Below, in pieces: positions 5,953 through 42,388 of a stretch of 64,000 bases of DNA (within the stretch, counting starts at the first letter, position 1; every line of letters begins with the position of its first letter). The position numbers and the translations under genes are program-made. Source of the DNA: Escherichia coli (GTDB taxonomy: Bacteria; Pseudomonadota; Gammaproteobacteria; Enterobacterales; Enterobacteriaceae); NCBI RefSeq assembly GCF_003334315.1, contig NZ_QOWR01000004.1; one strand, written 5' to 3'. Under the pieces are notes generated by a model. That model was not told where the DNA came from. It ran no database searches and was given only the letters and a program-made list of their open reading frames with translations.

Positions 5953-6065
5953 TTATCATCATTCTTATTACCCATTTTTAATGAATTACAGGGCTTTTAA
6001 TACACCGCAGCAATAACAGGTTGAGTTATCTCAACACAAAGTAATAACCGTTAAGGGTGTAGCCT

Positions 6066-6161
6066 ATGATCAACACAAATATGAAATATTGGTCCTGGAT
6101 GGGCGCGTTTTCTCTGTCGATGCTCTTCTGGGCCGAACTCCTCTGGATCATTACTCACTGA
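6066..6161 (+). CDS. Candidate 31-aa hydrophobic small protein upstream of acnA
   Basis: Read from sequence: MINTNMKYWSWMGAFSLSMLFWAELLWIITH; single predicted TM helix; not in ORF track (too short); not matched to a named gene. Confidence 0.3.
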   Translation: MINTNMKYWSWMGAFSLSMLFWAELLWIITH

Positions 6162-6324
6162 TCCCTGACCCCGTTGCGGCGGGGTTTTCATTTGCTTTGC
6201 CACAAGGTTTCTCCTCTTTTATCAATTTGGGTTGTTATCAAATCGTTACGCGATGTTTGTGTTATCTTTAATATTCACCCTGAAGAGAATCAGGGCTTCG
6301 CAACCCTGTCATTAAGGAGGAGCT

Positions 6325-12221: not shown

Positions 12222-12414
12222 TTTTTAAAAAAAATCCGACTTTAGTTACAACATACTAATTATTAATGTTCCATTGTGCTCCGGCAACGACGGCGCAGAA
12301 AAAGCCTGCCAGGGGAGAAATCGCAACTGTTAATTTTTTATTTCCACGGGTAGAATGCTCGCCGTTTACCTGTTTCGCGCCACTTCCGGTGCCCATCATC
12401 AAGAAGGTCTGGTC

Positions 12415-25010: not shown

Positions 25011-25962
25011 ACCATTCCTTATGTTTCAGAGGGTTAGCCATGGCACCCAAAATATCAGAAATCACGTTAACAATAATGACCAGTGAGCCACACACCATCA
25101 CTCCGGCGGAAATGGCTGCGTAATCCTGCTGGCGGATGGCGTTAATTAACCAGCGCCCTAAACCCGGCCAGCTAAAAACCATTTCGGTGATCATCGCCAG
25201 CGTCAGCATGGTGGAAAACTGTAAGCCCAGGCGAGGAATAACCGGCGGTAACGCGTTATGCAGAACGTGGCGACGCAAAATAGTAAAGCGCGACAAACCG
25301 CGGGTCGCCGCCGCTTTTACATAGTTCTGGTCATACACTTCGATAGTGCTGATACGCATCAGGCGGATCACTTCAGTTGTTGGCGCAACCGACAGGGTGA
25401 TCACGGGCAATATCATATGGCGGATTGCGCTCATGATCATTTCATCCCGCCATGGTGAGTCCGAAAGCCAGGCATCAATCAACGCAAAACCGGTAATCGG
25501 TTTCACTTCGTAGAGCAGATCGAAACGCCCTGAAACGGGCAACCAACCTAGCGTGAGTGAACAAAACAGCGTCAACAGAAGCGCCAGCCAGAACACCGGG
25601 ATTGAAAAGCCCAGTAAGGCGATGGCGTTGATCAAGTTATCCTGCCACTTATGGCGCGTAATCCCGGCAATCATCCCCACGGGGATGCCAACAATCAGCG
25701 CAAAACCGAAGGCGAGGATGCACAGTTCCATCGTCGCCGGGAAGACCTCTTTTAACTGTTCGGCAATCGGTTGACCGTTAATGCTGGAAACACCAAAATC
25801 CCAGTGGATCAGGCCGTTAAACCAGAACACCCAGGCATTCCACAGTGACGCGCCTTGTAACGGCGCATGAGGGGTGAAATAGCTCAAGCTGAAGCCAACG
25901 AAGGTCAGCAGGAACAAGGTGACAATCAATAACAAAATGCGGCGTAAGGTGAAGATAATCAT
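24997..25962 (-). CDS. sapB: ABC transporter permease SapB (321 aa)
   Basis: ORF track; polytopic permease overlapping sapC/sapA. Confidence 0.9.
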
Positions 25963-27602
25963 GGTTTTTTCACCTCATCCTGTTTCTCGCGATACACCCC
26001 AGCAAAGGAGGCGTTACCAAACGGGCTAAGTACCAGACCTTTGATATCGTACCGATAGGCCTGCAAACGCAATGACGACGCCAGCGGCAAAATGGGCAAT
26101 TCCTGCGCCAGAATACTCTGCGCTTCGTCATAGGCTTCAATACGCGCCGCCAGCTGCTGCGAAGAGAGTGCCTTACGCAATACGCTGTCGAATTTCGGAT
26201 CGCACCAGTGGGCGAGGTTGGTCTGCGAATGAATTGCCGCGCAGCTCAGTAACGGACGGAAGAAACTGTCCGGGTCGTTACTGTCCGTCGCCCAACCGGA
26301 TAACGTCAGATCATGGCTCATATCCATCAACCGCGCCTCCTGAAAGCGACCTTCTACCGGCACAATCACCACTTTTACGCCAACCTGCGCCATATCCGCC
26401 TGAATCAGTTCGGCAGTTTTCAGTGGACTGGGGTTCCACGCCTGCGAACGTGTGGGCACCCACAGTTTCAGCGTTAAATTTTCCAGCCCCAACGACTTCA
26501 ACTGTTCGCGCGATTTCGCCGGATTGTATTCAGTAATTTTAGCCTCGTTGTCATAGGCCCACGAGGCGCGCGGTAAAATAGAGGCCGCCGTTTCAGCCGT
26601 ACCATAATAGATGGATTGCATCAGGCGCTGGTTATTAATCGCCAGTGCCAGCGCATGGCGGACAGCGGGATTATTTAGCGGCGGTTTGGCGGTGTTAAAT
26701 GCCAGATAGGCGACGTTCATCCCAGGACGCAGCGTTAAACGCAAGCGCGGGTCGTCACGCAAAATGGATAGCTGGCTGGCAGCAGGCCAGGCCAGAACGT
26801 CGCATTCCCCGGTCAGGAGTTTCGACAGACGTCCGGTGCCGCCGGAGCCTAAATCCACCACTACCTGCGGCATTAACGGTTTACCGCGCCAGAAGTCATC
26901 ATGACGTTGTAGGCGAATAAATTGCCCGGCGCGGTATTCCGACAACTGATACGGACCGGTGCCGACCGGTTGACGGTCGAGTTGCTCCTGGCGATCTTCT
27001 TTCTCTAACTTCCGGGCATATTCTGCCGACATGACCGAAGCATAATGGGTTGCGAGGTGCCACAAAAAAGAAGCATCCGGCTGGGCGAGTCGGAACTCAA
27101 CGGTATGATTATCCAGTTTGCGGACGCTTTTCACGTTATCGGCAAATTGCAGGCTGTCGAAGTAGGGGAAGTTGCTGCCGTTGACGTTATGCCACGGGTT
27201 GTTGCGGTCAAAAATTCGCTGGAAGGTAAACACCACATCGTCGGCATTCATTTTACGAGTGGGAGTAAACCAGTCGGTTTTTTGAAACGGAACATCGCGA
27301 CGCAGGTGGAAGCGATAGGTCGCGCCGTTGTCGAGTACTTCCCAGCTTTCGGCAAGTTCCGGCATCAGGCGATAGGTATAGGGATCGACATCCAGCAGTC
27401 GATCATAAAACTGGGCGGCAAGGGTATCGACAATTAACCCACTGCTCGCTTTGGATGGGTTAAAGGTGTTGACTTGCCCGCTGACGCAATAGACAAAACC
27501 GCTGTCGCGGATATCAGCATGCGGGGGAGATTCAGGCGCGGCGATTGCCTGACCACTCACAAGTCCAGCAATCACCAAAAGAGACGATAATACCTGGCGC
27601 AT
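25959..27602 (-). CDS. sapA: Periplasmic substrate-binding protein SapA (547 aa)
   Basis: ORF track; signal peptide, family-5 SBP. Confidence 0.92.
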
Positions 27603-27851
27603 AATATTAAGGGATTTTATGTAAAGAGGCTATCTTACTAATATTTAATGACATTTGCCATTACCGTTTGTGTTCAGGGGTCGTAATGAGGGCCGTGTGG
27701 TTGGTCGTTGAACAGGTGACGTCGCCATCTGTTCAACATTCGTACCCGTGATTTCTCTATAACTATAACTCACAGAACAACTTAGCGAGGAGCAGAGCGG
27801 TACGATCGTGAGAAACCCATTAAAGCACGCTGCAGTGCGTGTCATTGTTAG

Positions 27852-27885
27852 CCAGATGCGGCGTGAACGCTTTATCCGGACAACG
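27852..27885. repeat. REP (repetitive extragenic palindrome) element downstream of ymjA
   Basis: Read from sequence: gccagatgcggcgtgaacgctttatccggac matches REP consensus; approximate coordinates. Confidence 0.55.
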
Positions 27886-27914
27886 ATACTGACCGATCGT
27901 CTGCAATTAAATCA

Positions 27915-28160
27915 TTACTCATTACCCCATTGATTCAAAAACTCTGCGATCTCATCAATGCGTACGGGATTAATCCCCGCTTCAGCAGCCATTTCATGTT
28001 GGGCTTCTTCGCTGATCTCTTCATTGTTCATCAAACGGGTGAGCAGTAACTGGAAGTAGTGGGCCAGCGGTGTGCGTTCAGCCTCTGCGACAGGCTCTGC
28101 GCATTCGGTCGCGTACTCATCGGCAATATCAAAATATTTTAGCGGGATATCGTGGTTCAT
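27915..28160 (-). CDS. ymjA: DUF2543 small protein YmjA (81 aa)
   Basis: ORF track; size/position between sapA and puuP. Confidence 0.8.
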
Positions 28161-28293
28161 TATTTGCCCCTGGGGTTAATGCGCTAAGCATAAGGGCGGA
28201 TGATAGCACTCGTGATCCGGGTCATACATCTTTTTATAGTTAATGGCGCGGCGCGTTACCCTCAGGCAGGATAATGCGCCGCGCATCCGACTA

Positions 28294-29679
28294 TTACGTT
28301 TCACTCACCGGCGTTCTGTCACCATCATACAACGGCACTTTGCGATAGCGGCGGATCAGATACCATAAATATGCGCCGCCTAACGAAGCCCATACCAGAC
28401 CGAGTGTCAGTGACGTTGACTCGAGGTTAACCCACAGCACACCCACCGTCAGCGCGCCAACCAGCGGCATCAGCAAATAGTGGAAGTGATCCTTCCAGCT
28501 TTTATTCATTCCTTTACGCCGCCAGAAATGATTAAACACCGACAGATTCACGAAGGTAAACGCCACCAGAGCACCGAAGTTAATTAACGCTGTGGCGGTA
28601 ACTAAATCGAAGAACAGCGCCGACAACGCGACAATCCCGACCATAATGACGTTGAGTGCCGGAGTCCGCCATTTTGGGTGCACATAGCCAAACACGCGCT
28701 CCGGAAACACATTGTCACGCCCCATCACATACAGCAGACGCGACACGCTGGCATGTGAAGCCAGGCCAGAGGCTAACGTGTTCACAAACGTGGTGCAGAG
28801 GAAAATCGACTGGAAGAGCTTGCCGCCGACGTACAGCGCAATTTCAGGCAGTGCGGCATCCGGATCTTTAAAGCGGCTGATATCGGGAAAGAACAGCTGC
28901 ATAAAGAACGACGCCGCGATAAAGATAACGCCACCGTAGACCGCCGTCAGGAAGATGGCTTTCGGGATCACGCGTGCGGCGTCCGGCGTCTCTTCCGAAA
29001 GCGTGGTCACCGCATCGAAACCGAGGAAGGAGAAACAGACAATCGTCGCCCCGGTAATAATCGGGATCAGGTGCGCGTTCTCGCTGATAAACGGCTGAAG
29101 TGACCAGACGGTGCCAACGTCTTCTCCTTTATGCAGTCCCTGAACTACCAGGAAGATAAACACCACCATGATGGAGATTTGTACCAGTACAAACAGGGTA
29201 TTGAAGTTAGCGACCAGGTTGACGCTCTTCAGATTCGCGGCGGTTAAAATGGCGACGAAGGTTACCACCCACACCCACGGCGGCACTTCCGGGAAGAGGG
29301 CGGAGAGATAGATTTTCGCCAACAAGACGTTAATCATCGGCAAAAAGAGATAATCCAGCAGCGATGACCAGCCGACCATAAATCCGACGTGCGGGTTAAT
29401 CGACTTTTGCGCGTAGGTATAGGCCGAACCGGCCTCCGGAAACTGGCGAACCAGTTTGCCGTAGCTGATAGCGGTAAACAGCACACCCGCCAGCGCCAGC
29501 AAATAGGACGCCGGAACGTGACCGTCGCTAATGCCGGAGACAATACCAAAAGTATCAAATACGGTCATCGGCGTGAGATAGGCCAGACCCATCATCACCA
29601 CCTGCCACAATTTCAGTGATTTTCGCAGACGGGTTTTGCCGGGTTGCGCAGCAATATTCAGTGGTGAATTAATAGCCAT
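28294..29679 (-). CDS. puuP: Putrescine importer PuuP (APC family), 461 aa
   Basis: ORF track 28294..29733; start moved to internal Met ([14 protein letters not shown]); about 12 TM segments. Confidence 0.9.
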
Positions 29680-29981
29680 AATTGCTGCCTCCCCTGCGTA
29701 ATAAGGTTTGCGGTCGTGTCGACCTGAAATCAAACCTGTTTAGCAAGGGAAGCAAAGGGGGCGGAGTCCAGTCAGTAGCAGGAGGGGCGCATACGCAGCC
29801 TCCCTCGCCATGCGGGGATTTAATCATCGGCATCATCTCATTTCCTCGTCACAGTCTTAATCGTTAACGGAAGCCCGTTGCCGCCCGCGCTCCATAACGC
29901 GACATCCGGGAAATGTCTGGATTACCAGCAAATGTCAGGCCTGGCTCCGCTCAGGCCGATGAAACAACCCCGCAAGGGGTA

Positions 29982-31401
29982 TTACGCGTTTTTCAACATC
30001 CACTCAATTTCTGTTTCTGTGATGAGGCGCTCAAACTGCAACAGCTCATCATTTTTACAGGCGTGATAGACATGGCAGAAGCGTTCGCCTAAATAGCGGC
30101 GCAGGTGATCATTCTCGATAAACTCACCCAGGGCATCGCTCTGGCGAATCGGAAAGGGTAAGCCTTCCTGTTCCAGCCCGTTGCCTTCGACTTCTTCCTG
30201 CAACGGCAGCTCGTTATCAAGGCCATGCAAAATACCGGCAAAAATCGCTGCCATCACCAGATATGGGGTGGCATCGGCACCCGCCACGCGATATTCCACG
30301 CGGTGATTATGACGGTCGCCGCACGGAATACGCAGGGCGACGGTGCGGTTGTTATGGCCCCACGACGCCTGCGTCGGCACATACATTCCCGGCTGGAAGC
30401 GGCGATACGAGTTCACGTTTGGTGCCAGCAACGCCATCGACGACGGCATCAGGTCAATCATCCCGGCGAGCATCTTTTTCAGCAGCGGCGAATCTTCGCC
30501 TTCCGCGTCAGAAAGCACGTTCTCGCCACGATTATTTTGCATACTGATATGGATATGCATTCCGCTGCCCGCGTGCTCTTCATACGGCTTCGCCATAAAA
30601 GTGGCGTGCATCTTATGCCTTTTCTGCCATCAGACGCACCAGGCGTTTTAGTGCCAGCGCATCATCGCAGGCTTCCAGCACGTTATCAGTATGGTAAAGG
30701 TTGATTTCAAACTGACCCGGCGAGGCCTCAGCGACCGCGCCATCTGCCGGAATCAGCTGTAACTGCGCCAGTTCATCAATATCATTGAGCACGTCGGCGA
30801 AGTGGTTGAGGTTATCAACGGAGTAAACCTGGCTTTGTGTATTGCGGTCATCGGTGCCAGGCGCGCAGGGCGGTTGCAGATACCCTTCAGCGTCGCGCTG
30901 GCGATCCAGTAAATAGAACTCCAGCTCTACCGCTACGACCGGGAACAATCCGCGCTGGCGCAGCTGCTGCCACAGGCGGTTAAGAACGTTCCGCGGCTCA
31001 ACGTCAAAGGGAGCGCCATCTTCATCGACCATGGTCAGGAGCATCTGACCGATAAACTCTGGATCGGCGGCAGAAGGAGTTAAGGAACCGAGAACAGGAA
31101 CACAGGTACGATCCGGCTCGCCCATTTCCTGACCCAGACCTGCTTCTTCTACTACGTTGCCCAGAATATCCATTGCAAATACCGAGGCCGGGAAATAACA
31201 CCCTTTCTCGAGCTTCTTCAGGCTTGAAACAGGAATACGCTTTCCACGGAAGCAACCATTTAAATCGGTAAGTAAAACATCAACATATTGCGTATTCGGG
31301 TAGCGCTCCAGGTAGCGTTTCACTTCCTGCGTAAAGGCGCTACCCCGCCTCTCTTCTGACTGCTGAACAAAGTTCTCTACTTCAACGATATTGGTTTCCA
31401 T
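29982..31401 (-). pseudogene. puuA: Gamma-glutamylputrescine synthetase PuuA (glutamine synthetase family), disrupted by a +1 frameshift near 30612-30619
   Basis: ORF track splits the gene into 30613..31479 (N-terminal, ends ...RLMAEKA*) and 29982..30611 (starts MHATFMAKPYEEHAGSGMHIH) in different frames; removing one G restores a 472-aa product. Confidence 0.8.
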
Positions 31402-31612
31402 GATTCTTCGCCTTTGGTTTGTTTTCCGCTCGTTATCAAAGCGTAAAATATAATGACCACCATTCGAATCTGTATGCAAACTAAATGTTTGTCAAATGTT
31501 AAATTGAGTTTGCAAAAATGAAAACCCACTGCTAGATTGAAAAAATATTGAACATAAAGGTCATTTAAAGCGCAGTAATGGCGATAATTTAGTCCACTTT
31601 GTGAGATTGAGC

Positions 31613-32377
31613 ATGGAAAATATAATGAACAATCCGGTTATCGGTGTCGTAATGTGCAGGAACAGGCTTAAGGGTCATGCGCCCCAGACTCTGCAAGAAA
31701 AGTACCTGAATGCCATCATCCATGCAGGCGGCTTGCCTATTGCGCTACCACATGCGCTGGCGGAACCGTCATTACTTGAACAACTTTTGCCGAAACTCGA
31801 TGGCATTTATCTTCCTGGTAGTCCCAGCAATGTGCAGCCGCACCTATATGGTGAAAACGGCGATGAGCCTGACGCCGATCCCGGGCGTGATCTTCTGAGC
31901 ATGGCGATAATTAATGCCGCACTCGAAAGGCGCATCCCCATTTTCGCCATCTGCCGGGGTTTACAAGAACTGGTGGTGGCAACCGGTGGTTCGTTGCATC
32001 GCAAGCTGTGCGAACAGCCTGAATTGCTGGAACATCGGGAAGATCCCGAACTGCCGGTGGAACAGCAATATGCACCGTCGCATGAAGTTCAGGTTGAAGA
32101 GGGGGGATTACTGTCTGCGTTGTTACCTGAATGTAGCAACTTTTGGGTAAACTCTCTACATGGACAAGGGGCGAAGGTCGTTAGCCCACGGTTGCGTGTT
32201 GAAGCTCGCTCGCCGGATGGCTTAGTTGAGGCGGTTAGCGTCATCAATCATCCTTTTGCGCTGGGCGTACAGTGGCACCCGGAATGGAACAGTAGCGAGT
32301 ACGCGCTTTCGCGTATATTGTTCGAGGGCTTTATCACCGCTTGTCAGCACCATATCGCTGAAAAACAGCGACTCTGA
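31613..32377 (+). CDS. puuD: Gamma-glutamyl-GABA hydrolase PuuD (class I glutamine amidotransferase-like), 254 aa
   Basis: ORF track 31601..32377 (GTG); start moved to ATG (MENIMNNPVIGVV); catalytic Cys in AICRG motif. Confidence 0.9.
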   Translation: MENIMNNPVIGVVMCRNRLKGHAPQTLQEKYLNAIIHAGGLPIALPHALAEPSLLEQLLPKLDGIYLPGSPSNVQPHLYGENGDEPDADPGRDLLSMAIINAALERRIPIFAICRGLQELVVATGGSLHRKLCEQPELLEHREDPELPVEQQYAPSHEVQVEEGGLLSALLPECSNFWVNSLHGQGAKVVSPRLRVEARSPDGLVEAVSVINHPFALGVQWHPEWNSSEYALSRILFEGFITACQHHIAEKQRL

Positions 32378-32403
32378 CCACTACAGTTTAAGGAAATGCA
32401 AAT

Positions 32404-32961
32404 ATGAGTGATGAGGGACTGGCGCCAGGAAAACGCTTGTCGGAAATCCGCCAGCAGCAGGGGCTTTCACAACGTCGTGCCGCCGAACTCTCCGGGCTGA
32501 CTCACAGTGCTATCAGTACGATAGAACAAGATAAAGTCAGCCCTGCCATCAGTACGCTGCAAAAGCTGCTGAAGGTGTATGGTCTGTCACTCTCGGAATT
32601 CTTTTCCGAGCCGGAAAAACCTGATGAGCCGCAGGTCGTCATTAATCAGGACGACTTAATTGAGATGGGTAGTCAGGGTGTGTCAATGAAGCTGGTTCAT
32701 AACGGTAACCCGAATCGCACGCTGGCGATGATCTTTGAAACGTACCAGCCGGGCACAACCACTGGGGAAAGAATTAAGCATCAGGGTGAGGAAATAGGCA
32801 CTGTACTGGAAGGTGAAATTGTTCTGACGATTAATGGTCAGGATTACCACCTCGTCGCGGGGCAAAGTTATGCCATTAATACCGGCATCCCGCACAGTTT
32901 CAGTAATACGTCGGCAGGTATTTGCCGAATTATCAGCGCCCATACGCCCACCACGTTTTAA
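32404..32961 (+). CDS. puuR: HTH (XRE) plus cupin repressor PuuR (185 aa)
   Basis: ORF track; N-terminal HTH and C-terminal cupin. Confidence 0.9.
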   Translation: MSDEGLAPGKRLSEIRQQQGLSQRRAAELSGLTHSAISTIEQDKVSPAISTLQKLLKVYGLSLSEFFSEPEKPDEPQVVINQDDLIEMGSQGVSMKLVHNGNPNRTLAMIFETYQPGTTTGERIKHQGEEIGTVLEGEIVLTINGQDYHLVAGQSYAINTGIPHSFSNTSAGICRIISAHTPTTF

Positions 32962-32975
32962 TCTTTTTGTTCTGT

Positions 32976-33005
32976 AAGCCGGGTAAGCGCAATGCGCCCG
33001 GCAAT
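32976..33005. repeat. REP-like palindrome / possible puuR terminator hairpin
   Basis: Read from sequence: taagccgggtaagcgcaatgcgcccggcaa; approximate coordinates. Confidence 0.5.
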
Positions 33006-33035
33006 CTATACACAAAATCATTCAAGTTGCATCAA

Positions 33036-33135
33036 GGCGGCAAGTGAGCGAATCCCGATGAGCTTACTCAGGTAAGTGATTCGGGGGAGCGAACGCAGCC
33101 AAGGCAGAGGCGGCTTGAAGGATGAAGTGTATATA
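33036..33135. repeat. ERIC/IRU (enterobacterial repetitive intergenic consensus) element
   Basis: Read from sequence: gcgaatcccgatgagcttactca and ggtaagtgattcgggggagcg match the two ERIC core arms; outer boundaries approximate. Confidence 0.65.
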
Positions 33136-33235
33136 AAGAATGTCGCCAGAAATAAACGGGCATACGGCCCGGGGATCTCTGCGCCCTGACGTTCACAAAC
33201 TGCATATATCTGATAGACGTGAAACAGGAGTCATA

Positions 33236-34723
33236 ATGAATTTTCATCATCTGGCTTACTGGCAGGATAAAGCGTTAAGTCTCGCCATTGAAAACCGCTT
33301 ATTTATTAACGGTGAATATACTGCTGCGGCGGAAAATGAAACCTTTGAAACCGTTGATCCGGTCACCCAGGCACCGCTGGCGAAAATTGCCCGCGGCAAG
33401 AGCGTCGATATCGACCGTGCGATGAGCGCAGCACGCGGCGTATTTGAACGCGGCGACTGGTCACTCTCTTCTCCGGCTAAACGTAAAGCGGTACTGAATA
33501 AACTCGCCGATTTAATGGAAGCCCACGCCGAAGAGCTGGCACTGCTGGAAACTCTCGACACCGGCAAACCGATTCGTCACAGTCTGCGTGATGATATTCC
33601 CGGCGCGGCGCGCGCCATTCGCTGGTACGCCGAAGCGATCGACAAAGTGTATGGCGAAGTGGCGACCACCAGTAGCCATGAGCTGGCGATGATCGTGCGT
33701 GAACCGGTCGGCGTGATTGCCGCCATCGTGCCGTGGAACTTCCCGCTGTTGCTGACTTGCTGGAAACTCGGCCCGGCGCTGGCGGCGGGAAACAGCGTGA
33801 TTCTAAAACCGTCTGAAAAATCACCGCTCAGTGCGATTCGTCTCGCGGGGCTGGCGAAAGAAGCAGGCTTGCCGGATGGTGTGTTGAACGTGGTGACGGG
33901 TTTTGGTCATGAAGCCGGGCAGGCGCTGTCGCGTCATAACGATATCGACGCCATTGCCTTTACCGGTTCAACCCGTACCGGGAAACAACTGCTGAAAGAT
34001 GCGGGCGACAGCAACATGAAACGCGTCTGGCTGGAAGCGGGCGGCAAAAGCGCCAACATCGTTTTCGCTGACTGCCCGGATTTGCAACAGGCGGCAAGCG
34101 CCACCGCAGCAGGCATTTTCTACAACCAGGGACAGGTGTGCATCGCCGGAACGCGCCTGTTGCTGGAAGAGAGCATCGCCGATGAATTCTTAGCCCTGTT
34201 AAAACAGCAGGCGCAAAACTGGCAGCCGGGCCATCCACTTGATCCCGCAACCACCATGGGCACCTTAATCGACTGCGCCCACGCCGACTCGGTCCATAGC
34301 TTTATTCGGGAAGGCGAAAGCAAAGGGCAACTGTTGTTGGATGGCCGTAACGCCGGGCTGGCTGCCGCCATCGGCCCGACCATCTTTGTGGATGTGGACC
34401 CGAATGCGTCCTTAAGTCGCGAAGAGATTTTCGGTCCGGTGCTGGTGGTCACGCGTTTCACATCAGAAGAACAGGCGCTACAGCTTGCCAACGACAGCCA
34501 GTACGGCCTTGGCGCGGCGGTATGGACGCGCGACCTCTCCCGCGCGCACCGCATGAGCCGACGCCTGAAAGCCGGTTCCGTCTTCGTCAATAACTACAAC
34601 GACGGCGATATGACCGTGCCGTTTGGCGGCTATAAGCAGAGCGGCAACGGTCGCGACAAATCCCTGCATGCCCTTGAAAAATTCACTGAACTGAAAACCA
34701 TCTGGATAAGCCTGGAGGCCTGA
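33236..34723 (+). CDS. puuC: Gamma-glutamyl-gamma-aminobutyraldehyde dehydrogenase PuuC (aldehyde dehydrogenase family), 495 aa
   Basis: ORF track 33140..34723; start moved to internal ATG (MNFHHLAYWQDKAL); ALDH catalytic Cys/Glu motifs. Confidence 0.9.
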   Translation: MNFHHLAYWQDKALSLAIENRLFINGEYTAAAENETFETVDPVTQAPLAKIARGKSVDIDRAMSAARGVFERGDWSLSSPAKRKAVLNKLADLMEAHAEELALLETLDTGKPIRHSLRDDIPGAARAIRWYAEAIDKVYGEVATTSSHELAMIVREPVGVIAAIVPWNFPLLLTCWKLGPALAAGNSVILKPSEKSPLSAIRLAGLAKEAGLPDGVLNVVTGFGHEAGQALSRHNDIDAIAFTGSTRTGKQLLKDAGDSNMKRVWLEAGGKSANIVFADCPDLQQAASATAAGIFYNQGQVCIAGTRLLLEESIADEFLALLKQQAQNWQPGHPLDPATTMGTLIDCAHADSVHSFIREGESKGQLLLDGRNAGLAAAIGPTIFVDVDPNASLSREEIFGPVLVVTRFTSEEQALQLANDSQYGLGAAVWTRDLSRAHRMSRRLKAGSVFVNNYNDGDMTVPFGGYKQSGNGRDKSLHALEKFTELKTIWISLEA

Positions 34724-34724
34724 A

Positions 34725-36005
34725 ATGACCGAACATACCAGCAGTTACTACGCCGCCAGTGCGAATAAATATGCACCATTCGACACGCTGAATGAGTCAA
34801 TCACCTGCGACGTTTGCGTGGTTGGCGGCGGCTATACCGGGCTCTCCTCCGCGCTGCATCTGGCGGAAGCGGGCTTTGACGTAGTGGTTCTCGAAGCCTC
34901 ACGCATCGGCTTTGGCGCAAGCGGGCGCAATGGCGGACAGCTTGTGAACTCCTACAGCCGCGACATCGACGTGATCGAAAAAAGCTACGGCATGGACACC
35001 GCCCGTATGCTCGGCAGCATGATGTTCGAAGGTGGTGAGATCATCCGCGAACGTATCAAACGTTATCAGATTGACTGCGACTACCGCCCCGGCGGCCTGT
35101 TTGTGGCGATGAATGATAAACAGCTCGCCACACTTGAAGAGCAGAAAGAGAACTGGGAACGCTACGGCAATAAACAGCTGGAATTGCTGGACGCCAACGC
35201 CATTCGCCGTGAAGTAGCCAGCGATCGCTATACCGGTGCGCTGCTGGATCACAGCGGTGGGCATATTCATCCGCTAAACCTTGCCATTGGCGAAGCGGAC
35301 GCCATCCGCCTCAACGGCGGGCGCGTGTATGAACTTTCTGCCGTGACGCAGATCCAGCACACCACGCCAGCCGTGGTGCGAACTGCCAAAGGTCAGGTGA
35401 CGGCGAAGTATGTGATTGTCGCCGGGAATGCGTATCTGGGCGATAAAGTAGAGCCGGAACTGGCGAAACGCAGCATGCCGTGCGGTACGCAGGTGATCAC
35501 CACCGAACGGCTGTCGGAAGATTTAGCCCGTTCGCTGATCCCGAAAAACTACTGTGTGGAAGACTGTAACTATCTGCTTGATTACTACCGTCTTACCGCC
35601 GACAACCGCCTGCTGTACGGCGGCGGCGTGGTCTACGGCGCGCGCGACCCGGATGACGTTGAGCGCCTTGTGGTGCCGAAACTGCTGAAAACCTTCCCGC
35701 AGCTGAAGGGCGTGAAAATTGATTACCGCTGGACGGGCAACTTCCTGCTGACCCTGTCGCGTATGCCGCAGTTTGGTCGCCTCGATACCAACATCTATTA
35801 CATGCAGGGCTACAGCGGCCACGGCGTGACCTGTACTCATCTAGCCGGACGTTTGATTGCCGAACTGCTGCGCGGCGACGCCGAACGTTTCGATGCCTTC
35901 GCCAATCTGCCGCATTACCCGTTCCCCGGCGGGCGCACGCTGCGTGTGCCGTTTACCGCGATGGGCGCGGCGTATTACAGCCTGCGCGATCGTCTGGGCG
36001 TTTAA
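34725..36005 (+). CDS. puuB: Gamma-glutamylputrescine oxidase PuuB (FAD-dependent), 426 aa
   Basis: ORF track; N-terminal GGGYTG FAD-binding motif. Confidence 0.9.
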   Translation: MTEHTSSYYAASANKYAPFDTLNESITCDVCVVGGGYTGLSSALHLAEAGFDVVVLEASRIGFGASGRNGGQLVNSYSRDIDVIEKSYGMDTARMLGSMMFEGGEIIRERIKRYQIDCDYRPGGLFVAMNDKQLATLEEQKENWERYGNKQLELLDANAIRREVASDRYTGALLDHSGGHIHPLNLAIGEADAIRLNGGRVYELSAVTQIQHTTPAVVRTAKGQVTAKYVIVAGNAYLGDKVEPELAKRSMPCGTQVITTERLSEDLARSLIPKNYCVEDCNYLLDYYRLTADNRLLYGGGVVYGARDPDDVERLVVPKLLKTFPQLKGVKIDYRWTGNFLLTLSRMPQFGRLDTNIYYMQGYSGHGVTCTHLAGRLIAELLRGDAERFDAFANLPHYPFPGGRTLRVPFTAMGAAYYSLRDRLGV

Positions 36006-36042
36006 TTTCCGATTAACCGTGAAGAGTCAAAAGGTGTGAAAC

Positions 36043-37308
36043 ATGAGCAACAATGAATTCCATCAGCGTCGTCTTTCTGCCACTCCGCGCGGGGTTGGCG
36101 TGATGTGTAACTTCTTCGCCCAGTCGGCTGAAAACGCCACGCTGAAGGATGTTGAGGGCAACGAGTACATCGATTTCGCCGCAGGCATTGCGGTGCTGAA
36201 TACCGGACATCGCCACCCTGATCTGGTCGCGGCGGTGGAGCAGCAACTGCAACAGTTTACCCACACCGCGTATCAGATTGTGCCGTATGAAAGCTACGTC
36301 ACCCTGGCGGAGAAAATCAACGCCCTTGCCCCGGTGAGCGGGCAGGCCAAAACCGCGTTCTTCACCACCGGTGCGGAAGCGGTGGAAAACGCGGTGAAAA
36401 TTGCTCGCGCCCATACCGGACGCCCTGGCGTGATTGCGTTTAGCGGCGGCTTTCACGGTCGTACGTATATGACCATGGCGCTGACCGGAAAAGTTGCGCC
36501 GTACAAAATCGGCTTCGGCCCGTTCCCTGGTTCGGTGTATCACGTACCTTATCCGTCAGATTTACACGGCATTTCAACACAGGACTCCCTCGACGCCATC
36601 GAACGCTTGTTTAAATCAGACATCGAAGCGAAGCAGGTGGCGGCGATTATTTTCGAACCGGTGCAGGGCGAGGGCGGTTTCAACGTTGCGCCAAAAGAGC
36701 TGGTTGCCGCTATTCGCCGCCTGTGCGACGAGCACGGTATTGTGATGATTGCTGATGAAGTGCAAAGCGGCTTTGCGCGTACCGGTAAGCTGTTTGCCAT
36801 GGATCATTACGCCGATAAGCCGGATTTAATGACGATGGCGAAAAGCCTCGCGGGCGGGATGCCGCTTTCGGGCGTGGTCGGTAACGCGAATATTATGGAC
36901 GCACCCGCGCCGGGCGGGCTTGGCGGCACCTACGCCGGTAACCCGCTGGCGGTGGCTGCCGCGCACGCGGTGCTCAACATTATCGACAAAGAATCACTCT
37001 GCGAACGCGCGAATCAACTGGGCCAGCGTCTCAAAAACACGTTGATTGATGCCAAAGAAAGCGTTCCGGCCATTGCTGCGGTACGCGGCCTGGGGTCGAT
37101 GATTGCGGTAGAGTTTAACGATCCGCAAACGGGCGAGCCGTCAGCGGCGATTGCACAGAAAATCCAGCAACGCGCGCTGGCGCAGGGGCTGCTCCTGCTG
37201 ACCTGTGGCGCATACGGCAACGTGATTCGCTTCCTGTATCCGCTGACCATCCCGGATGCGCAATTCGATGCGGCAATGAAAATTTTGCAGGATGCGCTGA
37301 GCGATTAA
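36043..37308 (+). CDS. puuE: 4-aminobutyrate aminotransferase PuuE (class III PLP aminotransferase), 421 aa
   Basis: ORF track; class III aminotransferase fold. Confidence 0.9.
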   Translation: MSNNEFHQRRLSATPRGVGVMCNFFAQSAENATLKDVEGNEYIDFAAGIAVLNTGHRHPDLVAAVEQQLQQFTHTAYQIVPYESYVTLAEKINALAPVSGQAKTAFFTTGAEAVENAVKIARAHTGRPGVIAFSGGFHGRTYMTMALTGKVAPYKIGFGPFPGSVYHVPYPSDLHGISTQDSLDAIERLFKSDIEAKQVAAIIFEPVQGEGGFNVAPKELVAAIRRLCDEHGIVMIADEVQSGFARTGKLFAMDHYADKPDLMTMAKSLAGGMPLSGVVGNANIMDAPAPGGLGGTYAGNPLAVAAAHAVLNIIDKESLCERANQLGQRLKNTLIDAKESVPAIAAVRGLGSMIAVEFNDPQTGEPSAAIAQKIQQRALAQGLLLLTCGAYGNVIRFLYPLTIPDAQFDAAMKILQDALSD

Positions 37309-37327
37309 TAGCCCAACGCAATAATGT

Positions 37328-37410
37328 CTGATGCGCTGCGCTTATCAGGCCTGCAAACGACGTATTGATTATGTATGCCGAATAAAGCATTCACGCCGCA
37401 TCCGGCAAGT
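37328..37410. repeat. BIME: two REP elements in opposite orientation between puuE and pspF
   Basis: Read from sequence: gatgcgctgcgcttatcaggcctgc ... gcattcacgccgcatccggcaag; approximate coordinates. Confidence 0.65.
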
Positions 37411-37427
37411 TGTATTGCTCAACTTCG

Positions 37428-38405
37428 CTAAATCTGGTGCTTTTTCAACAACGCGCGGAACTGATGATAAGTTAACCCCAGTAATTCAGCCGCGCGCTTC
37501 TGGTTATATTTCCCTTGTTGCAAACTGAGTTGCAGCAACTCTTTTTCCTGCTGCATCTGAAACTCACGTAAATCCAGCGGCAGTGTTGGAAGCGAGGTGG
37601 TTTCTGAAACGGCGATAGCGTCTTCAGGCGGACGCCGTTTAAAGGGATCAATAATGATGTCATCAAGCGGATAATCGCTGGTGCCGTGGCGATACACTGA
37701 ACGTTCCACCACGTTTTTCAATTCACGAATATTTCCCGGCCAACGATAATTCAGCAATGTTTCTCTGGCGCGCTCCGTAAACCCCGGGAACAGAGGCAGC
37801 TTGATTTCCCGACACATCTGGATGGCAAAGTATTCTGCCATCAACATTATGTCGCTTTCGCGCTCGCGCAGTGGTGGCAGTTGTACAACATCAAAAGCCA
37901 GTCGGTCGAGCAGGTCAGCGCGAAAAGTGCCTTCATTGACCATCGCCGGGAGATCGGCATTCGTCGCGCATACCAACCGCACATTCACCTGCAATGGCTG
38001 GCTGCCGCCAACGCGCTCCAGTTCACCGTACTCAATCACGCGCAATAATTTCTCCTGCACCATCATCGGTGCCGTAGCGAGTTCATCAAGAAATAGCGTA
38101 CCGCCGTCGGCACGTTCAAATCTCCCTGGATGACGTTTTTGCGCACCGGTAAACGCCCCCGCTTCGTGACCAAACAGTTCGGAATCCAGCAGATTTTCAT
38201 TTAACGCCGCGCAGTTAAGGGAAATAAACGGCCCTTGCCAACGGGAGGAGAGATAATGCAGGCGGCTGGCAATCAGCTCTTTACCGGTGCCGCGTTCGCC
38301 GATGATGAGCACCGGTTTGTCCAGCGGTGCGAGATGCGAAACCTGTTCCAGCACTTCGAGAAAGCTGTTCGCCTCACCAAGTAAATTATCTTTGTATTCT
38401 GCCAT
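37428..38405 (-). CDS. pspF: Sigma-54-dependent transcriptional activator PspF (325 aa)
   Basis: ORF track 37428..38420; start moved to internal Met (MAEYKDNLLGEANSF); AAA+ domain with GAFTGA motif, C-terminal HTH. Confidence 0.93.
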   Translation of the reverse strand: MAEYKDNLLGEANSFLEVLEQVSHLAPLDKPVLIIGERGTGKELIASRLHYLSSRWQGPFISLNCAALNENLLDSELFGHEAGAFTGAQKRHPGRFERADGGTLFLDELATAPMMVQEKLLRVIEYGELERVGGSQPLQVNVRLVCATNADLPAMVNEGTFRADLLDRLAFDVVQLPPLRERESDIMLMAEYFAIQMCREIKLPLFPGFTERARETLLNYRWPGNIRELKNVVERSVYRHGTSDYPLDDIIIDPFKRRPPEDAIAVSETTSLPTLPLDLREFQMQQEKELLQLSLQQGKYNQKRAAELLGLTYHQFRALLKKHQI

Positions 38406-38499
38406 GATGAAATTCGCCACTTGTTAGTGTAATTCGCTAACTCATCCTGGCATGTTGCTGTTGATTCTTCAATCAGATCTTTATAAATCAAAAAGATAA

Positions 38500-39240
<741 letters not shown>

Positions 39241-39293
39241 TAACATCCAGGCGGCGTCCGAACGCGCCGCCGCTCATCGTCTAAGGAGTACTT

Positions 39294-39518
39294 ATGAGCG
39301 CGCTATTTCTGGCTATTCCGTTAACCATTTTTGTGCTGTTTGTTTTACCGATCTGGTTATGGCTGCATTACAGCAATCGTTCTGGTCGCAGTGAATTGTC
39401 GCAAAGTGAGCAGCAGCGATTAGCGCAACTGGCTGATGAAGCAAAACGGATGCGCGAACGTATTCAGGCGCTGGAATCTATTCTTGATGCAGAACATCCG
39501 AACTGGAGGGATCGCTAA
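39294..39518 (+). CDS. pspB: Phage shock protein B (74 aa)
   Basis: ORF track; single TM helix. Confidence 0.92.
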   Translation: MSALFLAIPLTIFVLFVLPIWLWLHYSNRSGRSELSQSEQQRLAQLADEAKRMRERIQALESILDAEHPNWRDR

Positions 39519-39877
39519 TGGCGGGCATTAATCTCAATAAAAAATTATGGCGTATTCCACAGCAGGGCATGGTCCGCGGCGTCTGCGCCGGGATTGCCAA
39601 CTATTTTGATGTACCGGTAAAACTGGTGCGTATCCTGGTGGTGCTGTCGATTTTCTTCGGTCTGGCGCTGTTTACCCTGGTTGCTTACATCATTTTGTCA
39701 TTTGCGCTTGATCCAATGCCGGACAACATGGCCTTTGGTGAGCAGCTACCTTCCAGCAGCGAATTGCTGGATGAAGTCGACCGTGAACTGGCGGCAAGTG
39801 AAACGCGTTTACGCGAGATGGAACGTTATGTCACTTCCGATACTTTCACGTTACGTAGCCGTTTCCGTCAACTGTGA
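39518..39877 (+). CDS. pspC: Phage shock protein C (119 aa)
   Basis: ORF track; start overlaps pspB stop. Confidence 0.92.
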
Positions 39878-39885
39878 GGAAAGTT

Positions 39886-40107
39886 ATGAATACTCGCTGG
39901 CAACAGGCCGGGCAAAAGGTAAAGCCTGGTTTCAAATTAGCAGGCAAGCTGGTACTTCTTACCGCACTGCGCTATGGCCCGGCGGGTGTGGCGGGCTGGG
40001 CGATAAAATCAGTTGCTCGCCGACCGCTGAAAATGTTGCTGGCTGTGGCGCTGGAACCGCTGTTAAGTCGGGCTGCTAATAAACTGGCACAGCGTTATAA
40101 AAGGTGA
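39886..40107 (+). CDS. pspD: Phage shock protein D (73 aa)
   Basis: ORF track 39874..40107 (GTG); annotated from ATG ([10 protein letters not shown]). Confidence 0.88.
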
Positions 40108-40181
40108 GGGGAGTTTCGCAAAAATTGTTAAATCTCAGGCGTATAATGGATGGCAATTTTCATCCATAGAAGGACGCTTAC

Positions 40182-40496
40182 ATGTTTAAAAAAGGCTTAC
40201 TTGCTCTGGCACTGGTGTTTTCACTGCCCGTTTTCGCCGCTGAACACTGGATCGATGTTCGTGTTCCAGAGCAGTATCAGCAAGAGCACGTTCAGGGGGC
40301 CATCAATATTCCCCTGAAGGAAGTGAAAGAGCGCATTGCCACCGCCGTTCCGGATAAAAACGACACCGTGAAAGTGTATTGCAATGCCGGACGCCAGTCA
40401 GGGCAAGCAAAAGAGATCCTTAGCGAGATGGGATATACCCACGTTGAGAACGCCGGTGGCCTGAAAGACATCGCAATGCCGAAGGTCAAAGGTTAA
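40182..40496 (+). CDS. pspE: Thiosulfate sulfurtransferase PspE (rhodanese), 104 aa
   Basis: ORF track; signal peptide, rhodanese active-site Cys (CNAGRQS). Confidence 0.92.
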   Translation: MFKKGLLALALVFSLPVFAAEHWIDVRVPEQYQQEHVQGAINIPLKEVKERIATAVPDKNDTVKVYCNAGRQSGQAKEILSEMGYTHVENAGGLKDIAMPKVKG

Positions 40497-40510
40497 AAGA
40501 ATTCACCATG

Positions 40511-40538
40511 AGCGGCGCTTATGCGCCGTTTTTTTTTC
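40511..40538 (+). terminator. Intrinsic terminator after pspE
   Basis: Read from sequence: gagcggcgcttatgcgccg followed by a run of 9 T; approximate coordinates. Confidence 0.7.
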
Positions 40539-40708
40539 TGTCACACCTTATTTACATCCCCATAGATTATTTGCGTCAGCTCACAAATACGCTTTTTCCC
40601 TGGTAAAAAATGATTTCCTGCGTGACTAAAACCCTTGTGCTCAATTGACAGTTTATTTTCTGCGGAGTAGTCTCTCGTTTCATGGGACCGCTACCACGGA
40701 AAGGCAAC

Positions 40709-42388
40709 ATGAAACAGAAAATTACGGATTACCTGGACGAAATCTACGGTGGAACATTTACCGCAACTCATTTACAGAAACTTGTAACGCGTCTTGAGAG
40801 TGCGAAACGATTAATTACACAGCGACGTAAAAAACACTGGGATGAAAGTGATGTCGTGTTAATTACCTATGCCGATCAATTTCACAGCAATGATTTAAAA
40901 CCATTACCCACATTTAATCAGTTTTACCATCAATGGCTGCAAAGCATTTTTTCACATGTTCATTTGTTGCCGTTTTATCCATGGTCATCTGATGATGGCT
41001 TTTCGGTAATTGATTATCATCAGGTCGCCAGTGAAGCGGGGGAGTGGCAGGATATTCAGTAACTCGGTGAATGCAGTCATTTAATGTTTGATTTTGTCTG
41101 CAACCATATGTCGGCAAAAAGTGAATGGTTTAAAAACTATTTACAACAGCATCCAGGTTTTGAAGATTTTTTTATTGCCGTTGACCCGCAAACCGATCTC
41201 AGCGCCGTCACTCGCCCGCGTGCGTTACCGTTATTAACGCCATTCCAGATGCGCGATCATTCAACGCGCCATTTATGGACCACCTTTAGTGACGATCAAA
41301 TTGACCTGAATTACCGTAGCCCTGAAGTGTTGCTGGCGATGGTGGATGTTTTACTCTGTTACCTTGCGAAAGGTGCTGAGTATGTCCGCCTGGATGCCGT
41401 TGGCTTTATGTGGAAAGAGCCGGGAACAAGCTGCATCCATCTGGAAAAAACACATCTGATTATCAAACTGTTACGGTCGATTATTGATAACGTTGCGCCA
41501 GGTACAGTGATCATTACCGAGACCAATGTTCCGCATAAAGACAACATTGCTTACTTTGGCGCAGGCGATGACGAAGCACATATGGTGTACCAGTTCTCGC
41601 TGCCGCCACTGGTGCTGCATGCGGTGCAAAAACAGAACGTTGAGGCGCTTTGTGCGTGGGCGCAAAACCTGACACTACCTTCCAGCAACACCACCTGGTT
41701 TAACTTCCTCGCCTCTCACGATGGCATCGGGCTAAACCCGCTACGGGGCTTGTTGCCTGAAAGCGAAATATTAGAGCTGGTCGAGGCGTTACAGCAGGAA
41801 GGTGCATTAGTAAACTGGAAAAATAATCCCGACGGTACACGCAGTCCGTATGAAATAAATGTGACCTATATGGATGCGTTAAGCCGCCGTGAGAGTAGCG
41901 ATGAAGAACGTTGCGCCAGGTTTATCCTTGCCCATGCGATTTTGTTAAGTTTCCCCGGTGTGCCAGCGATATATATTCAAAGTATTCTTGGCTCGCGTAA
42001 TGATTACGCAGGTGTCGAAAAACTCGGATATAACCGTGCGATTAACCGTAAAAAATATCACAGTAAAGAGATAACCCGAGAACTGAACGATGAAGCTACA
42101 TTAAGGCATGCGGTATATCATGAGTTGTCGCGTTTAATTACACTTCGTCGCAGCCATAACGAGTTTCATCCGGATAATAATTTTACCATTGATACGATTA
42201 ATTCATCCGTAATGCGTATTCAAAGAAGTAACGCTGATGGTAATTGTCTGACTGGATTGTTTAATGTCAGTAAAAATATTCAGCATGTAAATATTACTAA
42301 TCTGCATGGTCGGGATCTGATTAGTGAAGTTGATATATTGGGTAATGAAATAACGCTGCGCCCCTGGCAGGTTATGTGGATTAAATAA
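40709..42388 (+). pseudogene. ycjM: GH13 sucrose-phosphorylase-like glucosylglycerate phosphorylase YcjM, interrupted by an in-frame TAA at 41060-41062
   Basis: ORF track gives two same-frame ORFs, 40682..41062 and 41084..42388 (offset 402 nt); 117 aa + stop codon + 7 aa + 434 aa reproduces the expected 559 codons. Confidence 0.8.

Follow-up and report, generated by a model that had tools for sequence, protein, structure and literature searches.

A probable recent, lineage-private single-base insertion in puuA within an otherwise intact Escherichia coli putrescine-utilization cluster

In a 64,000-nucleotide stretch of DNA from a phylogroup-A-like Escherichia coli strain (hereafter the window), puuA has very probably been made a pseudogene by a genuine, recent and lineage-private insertion of one G after codon 261. 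In the major putrescine pathway, PuuA performs the initial glutamylation, which is ATP-dependent; putrescine enters the cell through PuuP, and PuuR is the repressor of both puuAP and puuDRCBE (PMC9397018; PMC11968103). An uninterrupted puuA frame of about 472 codons is absent from the window, where a premature TAA follows the +1 insertion. The locus should be annotated as a frameshifted puuA pseudogene, and not as two glutamine-synthetase-like genes or as an assembly error.

A program-made list of open reading frames places two adjacent minus-strand ORFs in different frames at 30613..31479 and 29982..30611, as a first-pass annotation of this DNA had reported. The former encodes 288 aa when read from an upstream TTG, and 262 aa when read from the true ATG at 31401. 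The minus-strand junction between them is GAAAAG[G]CATAAG, with the extra G at window position 30618/30619; the coding strand across it is ctgatggcagaaaagGcataagatgcacgcc, read in codons as CTG ATG GCA GAA AAG GCA TAA G ATG CAC GCC ACT TTT ATG GCG AAG CCG. Translation from 31401 gives 262 residues with the C-terminal end LVRLMAEKA*, and the second frame translates as HKMHATFMAKPY and runs on to the normal stop at 29982 as HKMHATFMAKPYEEHAGSGMHIH. Removing the extra G restores the ATFMxKP motif and a product of 472 aa, an expectation of the first-pass annotation that both translation and alignment bear out. The fragments, the lesion and the neighbouring genes are listed in Table 1.

Table 1. 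The interrupted puuA gene and the surrounding putrescine-utilization genes in the window.
Feature	Position	Strand	Observation
puuA 5′ fragment	30613..31401	-	262 codons: wild-type M1..K261, then A262 and premature TAA at 30615-30613
puuA lesion	30618..30619	-	GG vs single G in every reference; one inserted G:C pair; AAG-GCA-TAA vs AAG-CAT-AAG
puuA 3′ fragment	29982..30611	-	209-codon ORF; ATG at 30611-30609 is wild-type M264; begins MHATFMAKPY
puuP (putrescine/H+ symporter)	28294..29679	-	intact, 461 codons; single change G187D (window 29120)
ymjE (small ORF between puuA and puuP)	29669..29833	-	identical to BL12
puuD	31613..32377	+	intact; nucleotide-identical to BL12
puuR (repressor)	32404..32961	+	intact; nucleotide-identical to BL12
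puuC	33236..34723	+	intact; nucleotide-identical to BL12
puuB	34725..36005	+	intact; nucleotide-identical to BL12
puuE	36043..37308	+	intact; nucleotide-identical to BL12

Megablast annotation, Pfam and gene order agree with the original assignment of the gene as puuA, of the glutamine-synthetase family. A megablast search with 29982-31401 found matches in 4374 of 5426 complete RefSeq E. coli genomes, the best of them spanning 1420 bases of the query and 1419 of the subject with 99.9% identity and annotated ‘puuA: glutamate-putrescine ligase’; six matches lie on plasmid-typed records, and a few genomes have two copies. Alignment to reference puuA had been proposed as a check on the frameshift, and in pairwise alignments with HS30-1, BL12 and others the window agrees at 1419 of 1419 aligned bases and has one base inserted, with no other difference in the gene from HS30-1 or BL12. 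The nearest relatives, BL12, Z1323PEC0010 and HS30-1, each have an intact 472-codon puuA. The repaired protein matches the Pfam domain Gln-synt_C over residues 134-467 (E = 7e-105), a domain that in the window is divided over the two ORFs. It also aligns lengthwise with solved glutamine synthetases, the segment LVRLMAEKHKMHATFMAKPYEEHAGSGMHIH being matched to 7tfc, and this alignment places the break at a helix-to-strand turn, two residues ahead of the conserved HATFMxKP/GSGMH core. Among glutamine-synthetase-type models of NCBIfam, each fragment matches one half only. No NCBIfam model reaches its curated cut-off even with intact PuuA, so this collection neither confirms nor denies membership, and identity to annotated puuA and the Pfam match were used instead.

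The insertion is absent from large genome collections. A 61-base probe on the junction matches 4372 complete E. coli genomes, every one at 98.4% identity, which corresponds to one gap; with none reaching 99%, the extra G is present in 0 of the 4372 complete puuA-bearing genomes. The two-ORF arrangement is thus not how reference puuA is built. A junction with a G or A insertion (ATGGCAGAAAARGCATAAGATGCAC) likewise has no match in species-representative genomes or JGI metagenome contigs. Because the extra G is missing from complete genomes, species representatives and metagenome contigs alike, we regard it as derived and private.

The same allele is found in Logan, a set of assemblies made independently from public sequencing runs, which was searched by the exact 262-aa and 209-aa products; both are present in its contigs. 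A contig from SRR1122540 is 100% identical to window 21707-41401 over the 19,695 bp compared, a stretch that contains the puuA insertion together with lineage-private single-nucleotide polymorphisms (SNPs) at 23290 and 29120. Contigs from SRR3951468 (11,921 bp), SRR25039417 (1,122 bp) and SRR25039420 (930 bp) also match the window at 100% identity with the insertion included. Independent assemblies could have shown one continuous ORF; contigs from these four runs carry the insertion instead. The first of these contigs, SRR1122540_157, is 41,868 bp long and from 21707 would reach 63574, a few bases inside the IS1 element that starts at 63548. Since it ends at the window's IS1, its reads and the window derive from one clone. 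The runs, at least four in number, may represent a single strain sequenced repeatedly; what they establish is the base in that strain's DNA, not its presence in a natural population. The allele encoding the AEKA* ending is on record in Logan read assemblies only, and not among NCBI protein records.

Where the break lies with respect to the conserved core leads us to expect that PuuA enzyme activity is lost. Read from its usual start, the gene ends at the TAA two codons past the insertion. The resulting 262-aa fragment retains the N-terminal domain and the beginning of the catalytic domain; missing from it are the HATFMxKP strand, the GSGMH metal/ATP loop and every substrate-binding residue further downstream. 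Ribosomes may or may not start again at the ATG 1 nt past the stop to translate the other 209 codons. Their product, which holds HATFMAKPY..GSGMH and the remainder of the catalytic domain, would have neither the N-domain nor the initial part of the barrel. With no single polypeptide bearing a complete active site, we expect gamma-glutamylputrescine synthesis to have been lost.

A second putrescine pathway of E. coli begins with the transaminase PatA (PMC11968103). In this strain, putrescine imported by PuuP would go through the PatA/PatD transaminase route only; PuuC and PuuE would keep a use, and PuuB and PuuD would have no substrate. The first-pass annotation had the pathway disabled; that expectation stands for the glutamylated (Puu) route and fails for putrescine use overall, because the PatA route exists. 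Growth on putrescine as nitrogen source reportedly stops only when both pathways are blocked, and PuuC and PuuE are said to be redundant with PatD and GabT and to serve the PatA route as well. If they do, the intactness of the neighbouring genes is not paradoxical, even leaving aside how young the mutation is. We predict that the strain lacks glutamylated putrescine catabolism and keeps the other route, and that it probably fails to grow with putrescine as sole carbon source. A sole-carbon-source test would thus discriminate, whereas a test with putrescine as sole nitrogen source probably would not. Mutants in puuA are also said to accumulate putrescine, and intracellular putrescine may be higher in this strain.

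The rest of the cluster has the gene order of annotated relatives, sapA-ymjA-puuP-ymjE-puuA with divergent puuD-puuR-puuC-puuB-puuE-pspF. Annotated coding sequences of BL12 (NZ_CP079780), the closest complete genome, were mapped onto the window, and puuP, puuD, puuR, puuC, puuB and puuE proved as intact as they had first appeared, puuP with its one amino-acid change. The G187D change is private, as its 61-mer occurs in 0 of 3906 complete E. coli genomes. Residue 187 belongs to the loop HKGE-G-VGT, which follows a transmembrane segment; among 85 aligned homologues the position is Gly in 43 sequences, gapped in 19 and Asp in 4. The idea that puuP is also damaged is weakened by these figures, which mark a length-variable loop where Gly is found in only 43 of 85 sequences and Asp in 4, and G187D is probably tolerated.

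Comparison with close relatives suggests that the lesion is young. Over 63,546 bases the window differs from BL12 by 13 SNPs and three single-base indels, and the window assembly is not indel-ridden. When differences are polarised with Z1323PEC0010 and the K-12-like strain ER1709, the changes private to the window's lineage in 63.5 kb are eight SNPs, the puuA insertion, loss of one A from an A8 run in pgrR and an IS1 insertion. The SNPs (8866, 11621, 11933, 16301, 20449, 23290, 29120 and 45319) are all transitions, seven of them G:C to A:T, and five of the eight are non-synonymous (acnA P848S, pdeR R312H, yciW A51T, puuP G187D and ycjP R246Q). BL12 has a private load of five SNPs and one indel over the same 63.5 kb, with a similar spectrum. 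A mutagenised or mismatch-repair mutator lineage was considered and dropped on this comparison: with comparable loads, ordinary divergence suffices without any such history. About 10 point events, the frameshift among them, part this clone from its nearest sequenced relatives, and the frameshift appears to be recent, which fits the lack of any secondary decay in the gene and its neighbours.

Several other features of the window were recorded alongside these comparisons. In pgrR (ycjZ; 62485-63383, plus strand), an A7 run at about 63247 stands where BL12 and Z1323PEC0010 have A8, and the frame is shifted at codon 257 of 299. The corresponding 66-mer with A7 is carried by 50 of 4290 complete E. 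coli genomes, which makes A7 either a homopolymer frameshift that has arisen repeatedly or an assembly error that keeps recurring. Just downstream, 63548-64000 is the left end of IS1 (GGTAATGACTCCAACTTATTGATAGTG), which is not in BL12. The glucosylglycerate phosphorylase gene ycjM (40709-42388, plus strand) has an internal stop common to BL12 and Z1323PEC0010; it is annotated as a pseudogene in both and is intact in the K-12-like ER1709. In the gap between mpaA and ycjY (about 61100-61420), the window and BL12 are without approximately 1.7 kb that is found in Z1323PEC0010 and holds a second alpha/beta hydrolase gene and an SDR oxidoreductase gene, and BL12 retains only a remnant ‘NAD-dependent dehydratase’ pseudogene there. 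The sole Rfam family to reach its gathering score in the window is the enterobacterial small RNA STnc180 (200.8 bits; 5993-6195, plus strand), which overlaps the ymiC region.

Selection is another account of the loss. Inactivation of puuA, possibly together with the puuP change, could have been favoured for raising or stabilising intracellular putrescine, in parallel with the absence of puu from phylogroup B2, and we consider this unlikely, although it fares better than the other alternatives. Two of the roughly 10 private point changes in 63.5 kb fall within the 2.8-kb puuAP operon; about 0.5 would be expected there by chance, however, and finding two has P ~0.09, which is not significant. 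The natural lack of puu in B2 strains and the putrescine build-up said to occur in puuA mutants would both suit selection, whereas the variable loop hit by the PuuP change has Asp in some natural homologues, and the allele is known from one clone only. An allele from run ERR10499010 also bears on the question: its contig has an inserted A (GAAAAAGCATAAG) at 1480-1495, near window position 30620, one base upstream of the window's G and with the same AEKA* product. It is 98.4% identical to the window's allele, and its best genome matches differ from it by the inserted A alone. This may be an independent frameshift and so a weak hint of selected loss, or it may be a homopolymer read error, for it comes from a single 1.5-kb contig and extends A4 to A5; were it real, GAAAAG would be a site of minor, recurrent indels.

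Continued function of the gene is considerably less probable than selection. In this account, the two halves are re-initiated and reassembled, or ribosomes shift by +1 at GCA-TAA and produce a full-length protein with H262A. The ATG of the 3′ fragment lies 1 nt past the premature TAA (TAAGATG), and the inserted G creates an AAGG (30621-30618) that sits 6 nt upstream of this ATG, so that re-initiation of the C-terminal half is plausible from the local signals. The split falls at a turn from helix to strand, and only H262 and K263 would be lost. Yet reassembly of the halves into an active oligomer is speculative: active-site residues are split over the fragments, and efficient complementation is unlikely in a large oligomer. 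Slimmer still than for continued function taken as a whole is the chance of an active gamma-glutamylputrescine synthetase in two pieces, both supplied through termination and re-initiation with the help of the new AAGG; if real, it would represent natural fragment complementation in a dodecamer of the glutamine-synthetase fold.

Recoding has a known counterpart in the programmed +1 site of prfB (RF2), which like the puuA junction has an in-frame stop near the shift point and an AAGG resembling a Shine–Dalgarno element just upstream. Unlike prfB, the puuA site has no slippery P-site codon, its Shine–Dalgarno-like element adjoins the codon instead of standing at 3-nt spacing, and it is conserved in no orthologue. 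With GCA in the P site, tRNA-Ala could not re-pair at CAU, and a shift from AAG to AGG would pair poorly; of a slippery codon beside a slow A-site codon, the junction has just the TAA stop. As a +1 frameshift site, the junction is found in 0 of 4372 genomes and has no match in species representatives or metagenome contigs, and nothing in this distribution suggests a programmed event.

Least probable of all is a sequencing or assembly artefact, in which the extra G would not be in the organism's DNA: the allele is unique against 4372 complete genomes and two further indels of one base that separate the window from BL12 are in A7/A8 runs, a classic error context, but the insertion recurs in independently assembled contigs from at least four different runs, the site goes from G1 to G2 and is not a long homopolymer, and of the two A-run indels, that at 12227 is private to BL12 and not to the window, while that at 63247 is an allele common to 50 complete genomes. 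The first-pass annotation had rated a base-calling error as equally likely with a true mutation; given the same allele in contigs of these runs, it is now unlikely.

A private insertion that inactivated puuA, our preferred reading, adds a new case to a well-known process, and we regard the result as an ordinary strain-specific pseudogene. Its consequence is limited, because the PatA pathway exists and because about 19% of complete E. coli genomes (1052 of 5426) have no puuA match by megablast. A literature search found no paper on this allele or on the run accessions; the paper on DGF-298 only lists puu genes in an engineered deletion. Truncated or partial PuuA proteins from E. coli and Shigella form two protein clusters, of 461 and 593; some of these records are cut by contig ends only, and several lie on megabase contigs. 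Two short forms, EGI96775.1 (313 aa) from Shigella boydii 5216-82 and STI86431.1 (132 aa), are on long contigs and point to recurrent pseudogenisation, with break points that differ from the one in the window.

Compared with puuA of E. coli K-12 (b1297, in the puuAP-puuDRCBE cluster), the window's gene shares the Gln-synt_C catalytic domain, but where the K-12 gene has 472 codons the window's is broken after codon 261 into ORFs of 262 and 209 codons. The closest parallel at the level of metabolism is phylogroup B2, whose strains generally do without the PuuA-initiated pathway (bioRxiv 10.64898/2025.12.08.692790), an absence consistent with the 1052 genomes without a match. As in B2, the PuuA-initiated route would be lost here and the PatA route kept. 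In B2 the whole cluster is missing, whereas the window has only a point lesion in puuA with the other genes intact, which points to a very recent event; the allele would be a further example of the known tendency of E. coli lineages toward loss of the Puu pathway.
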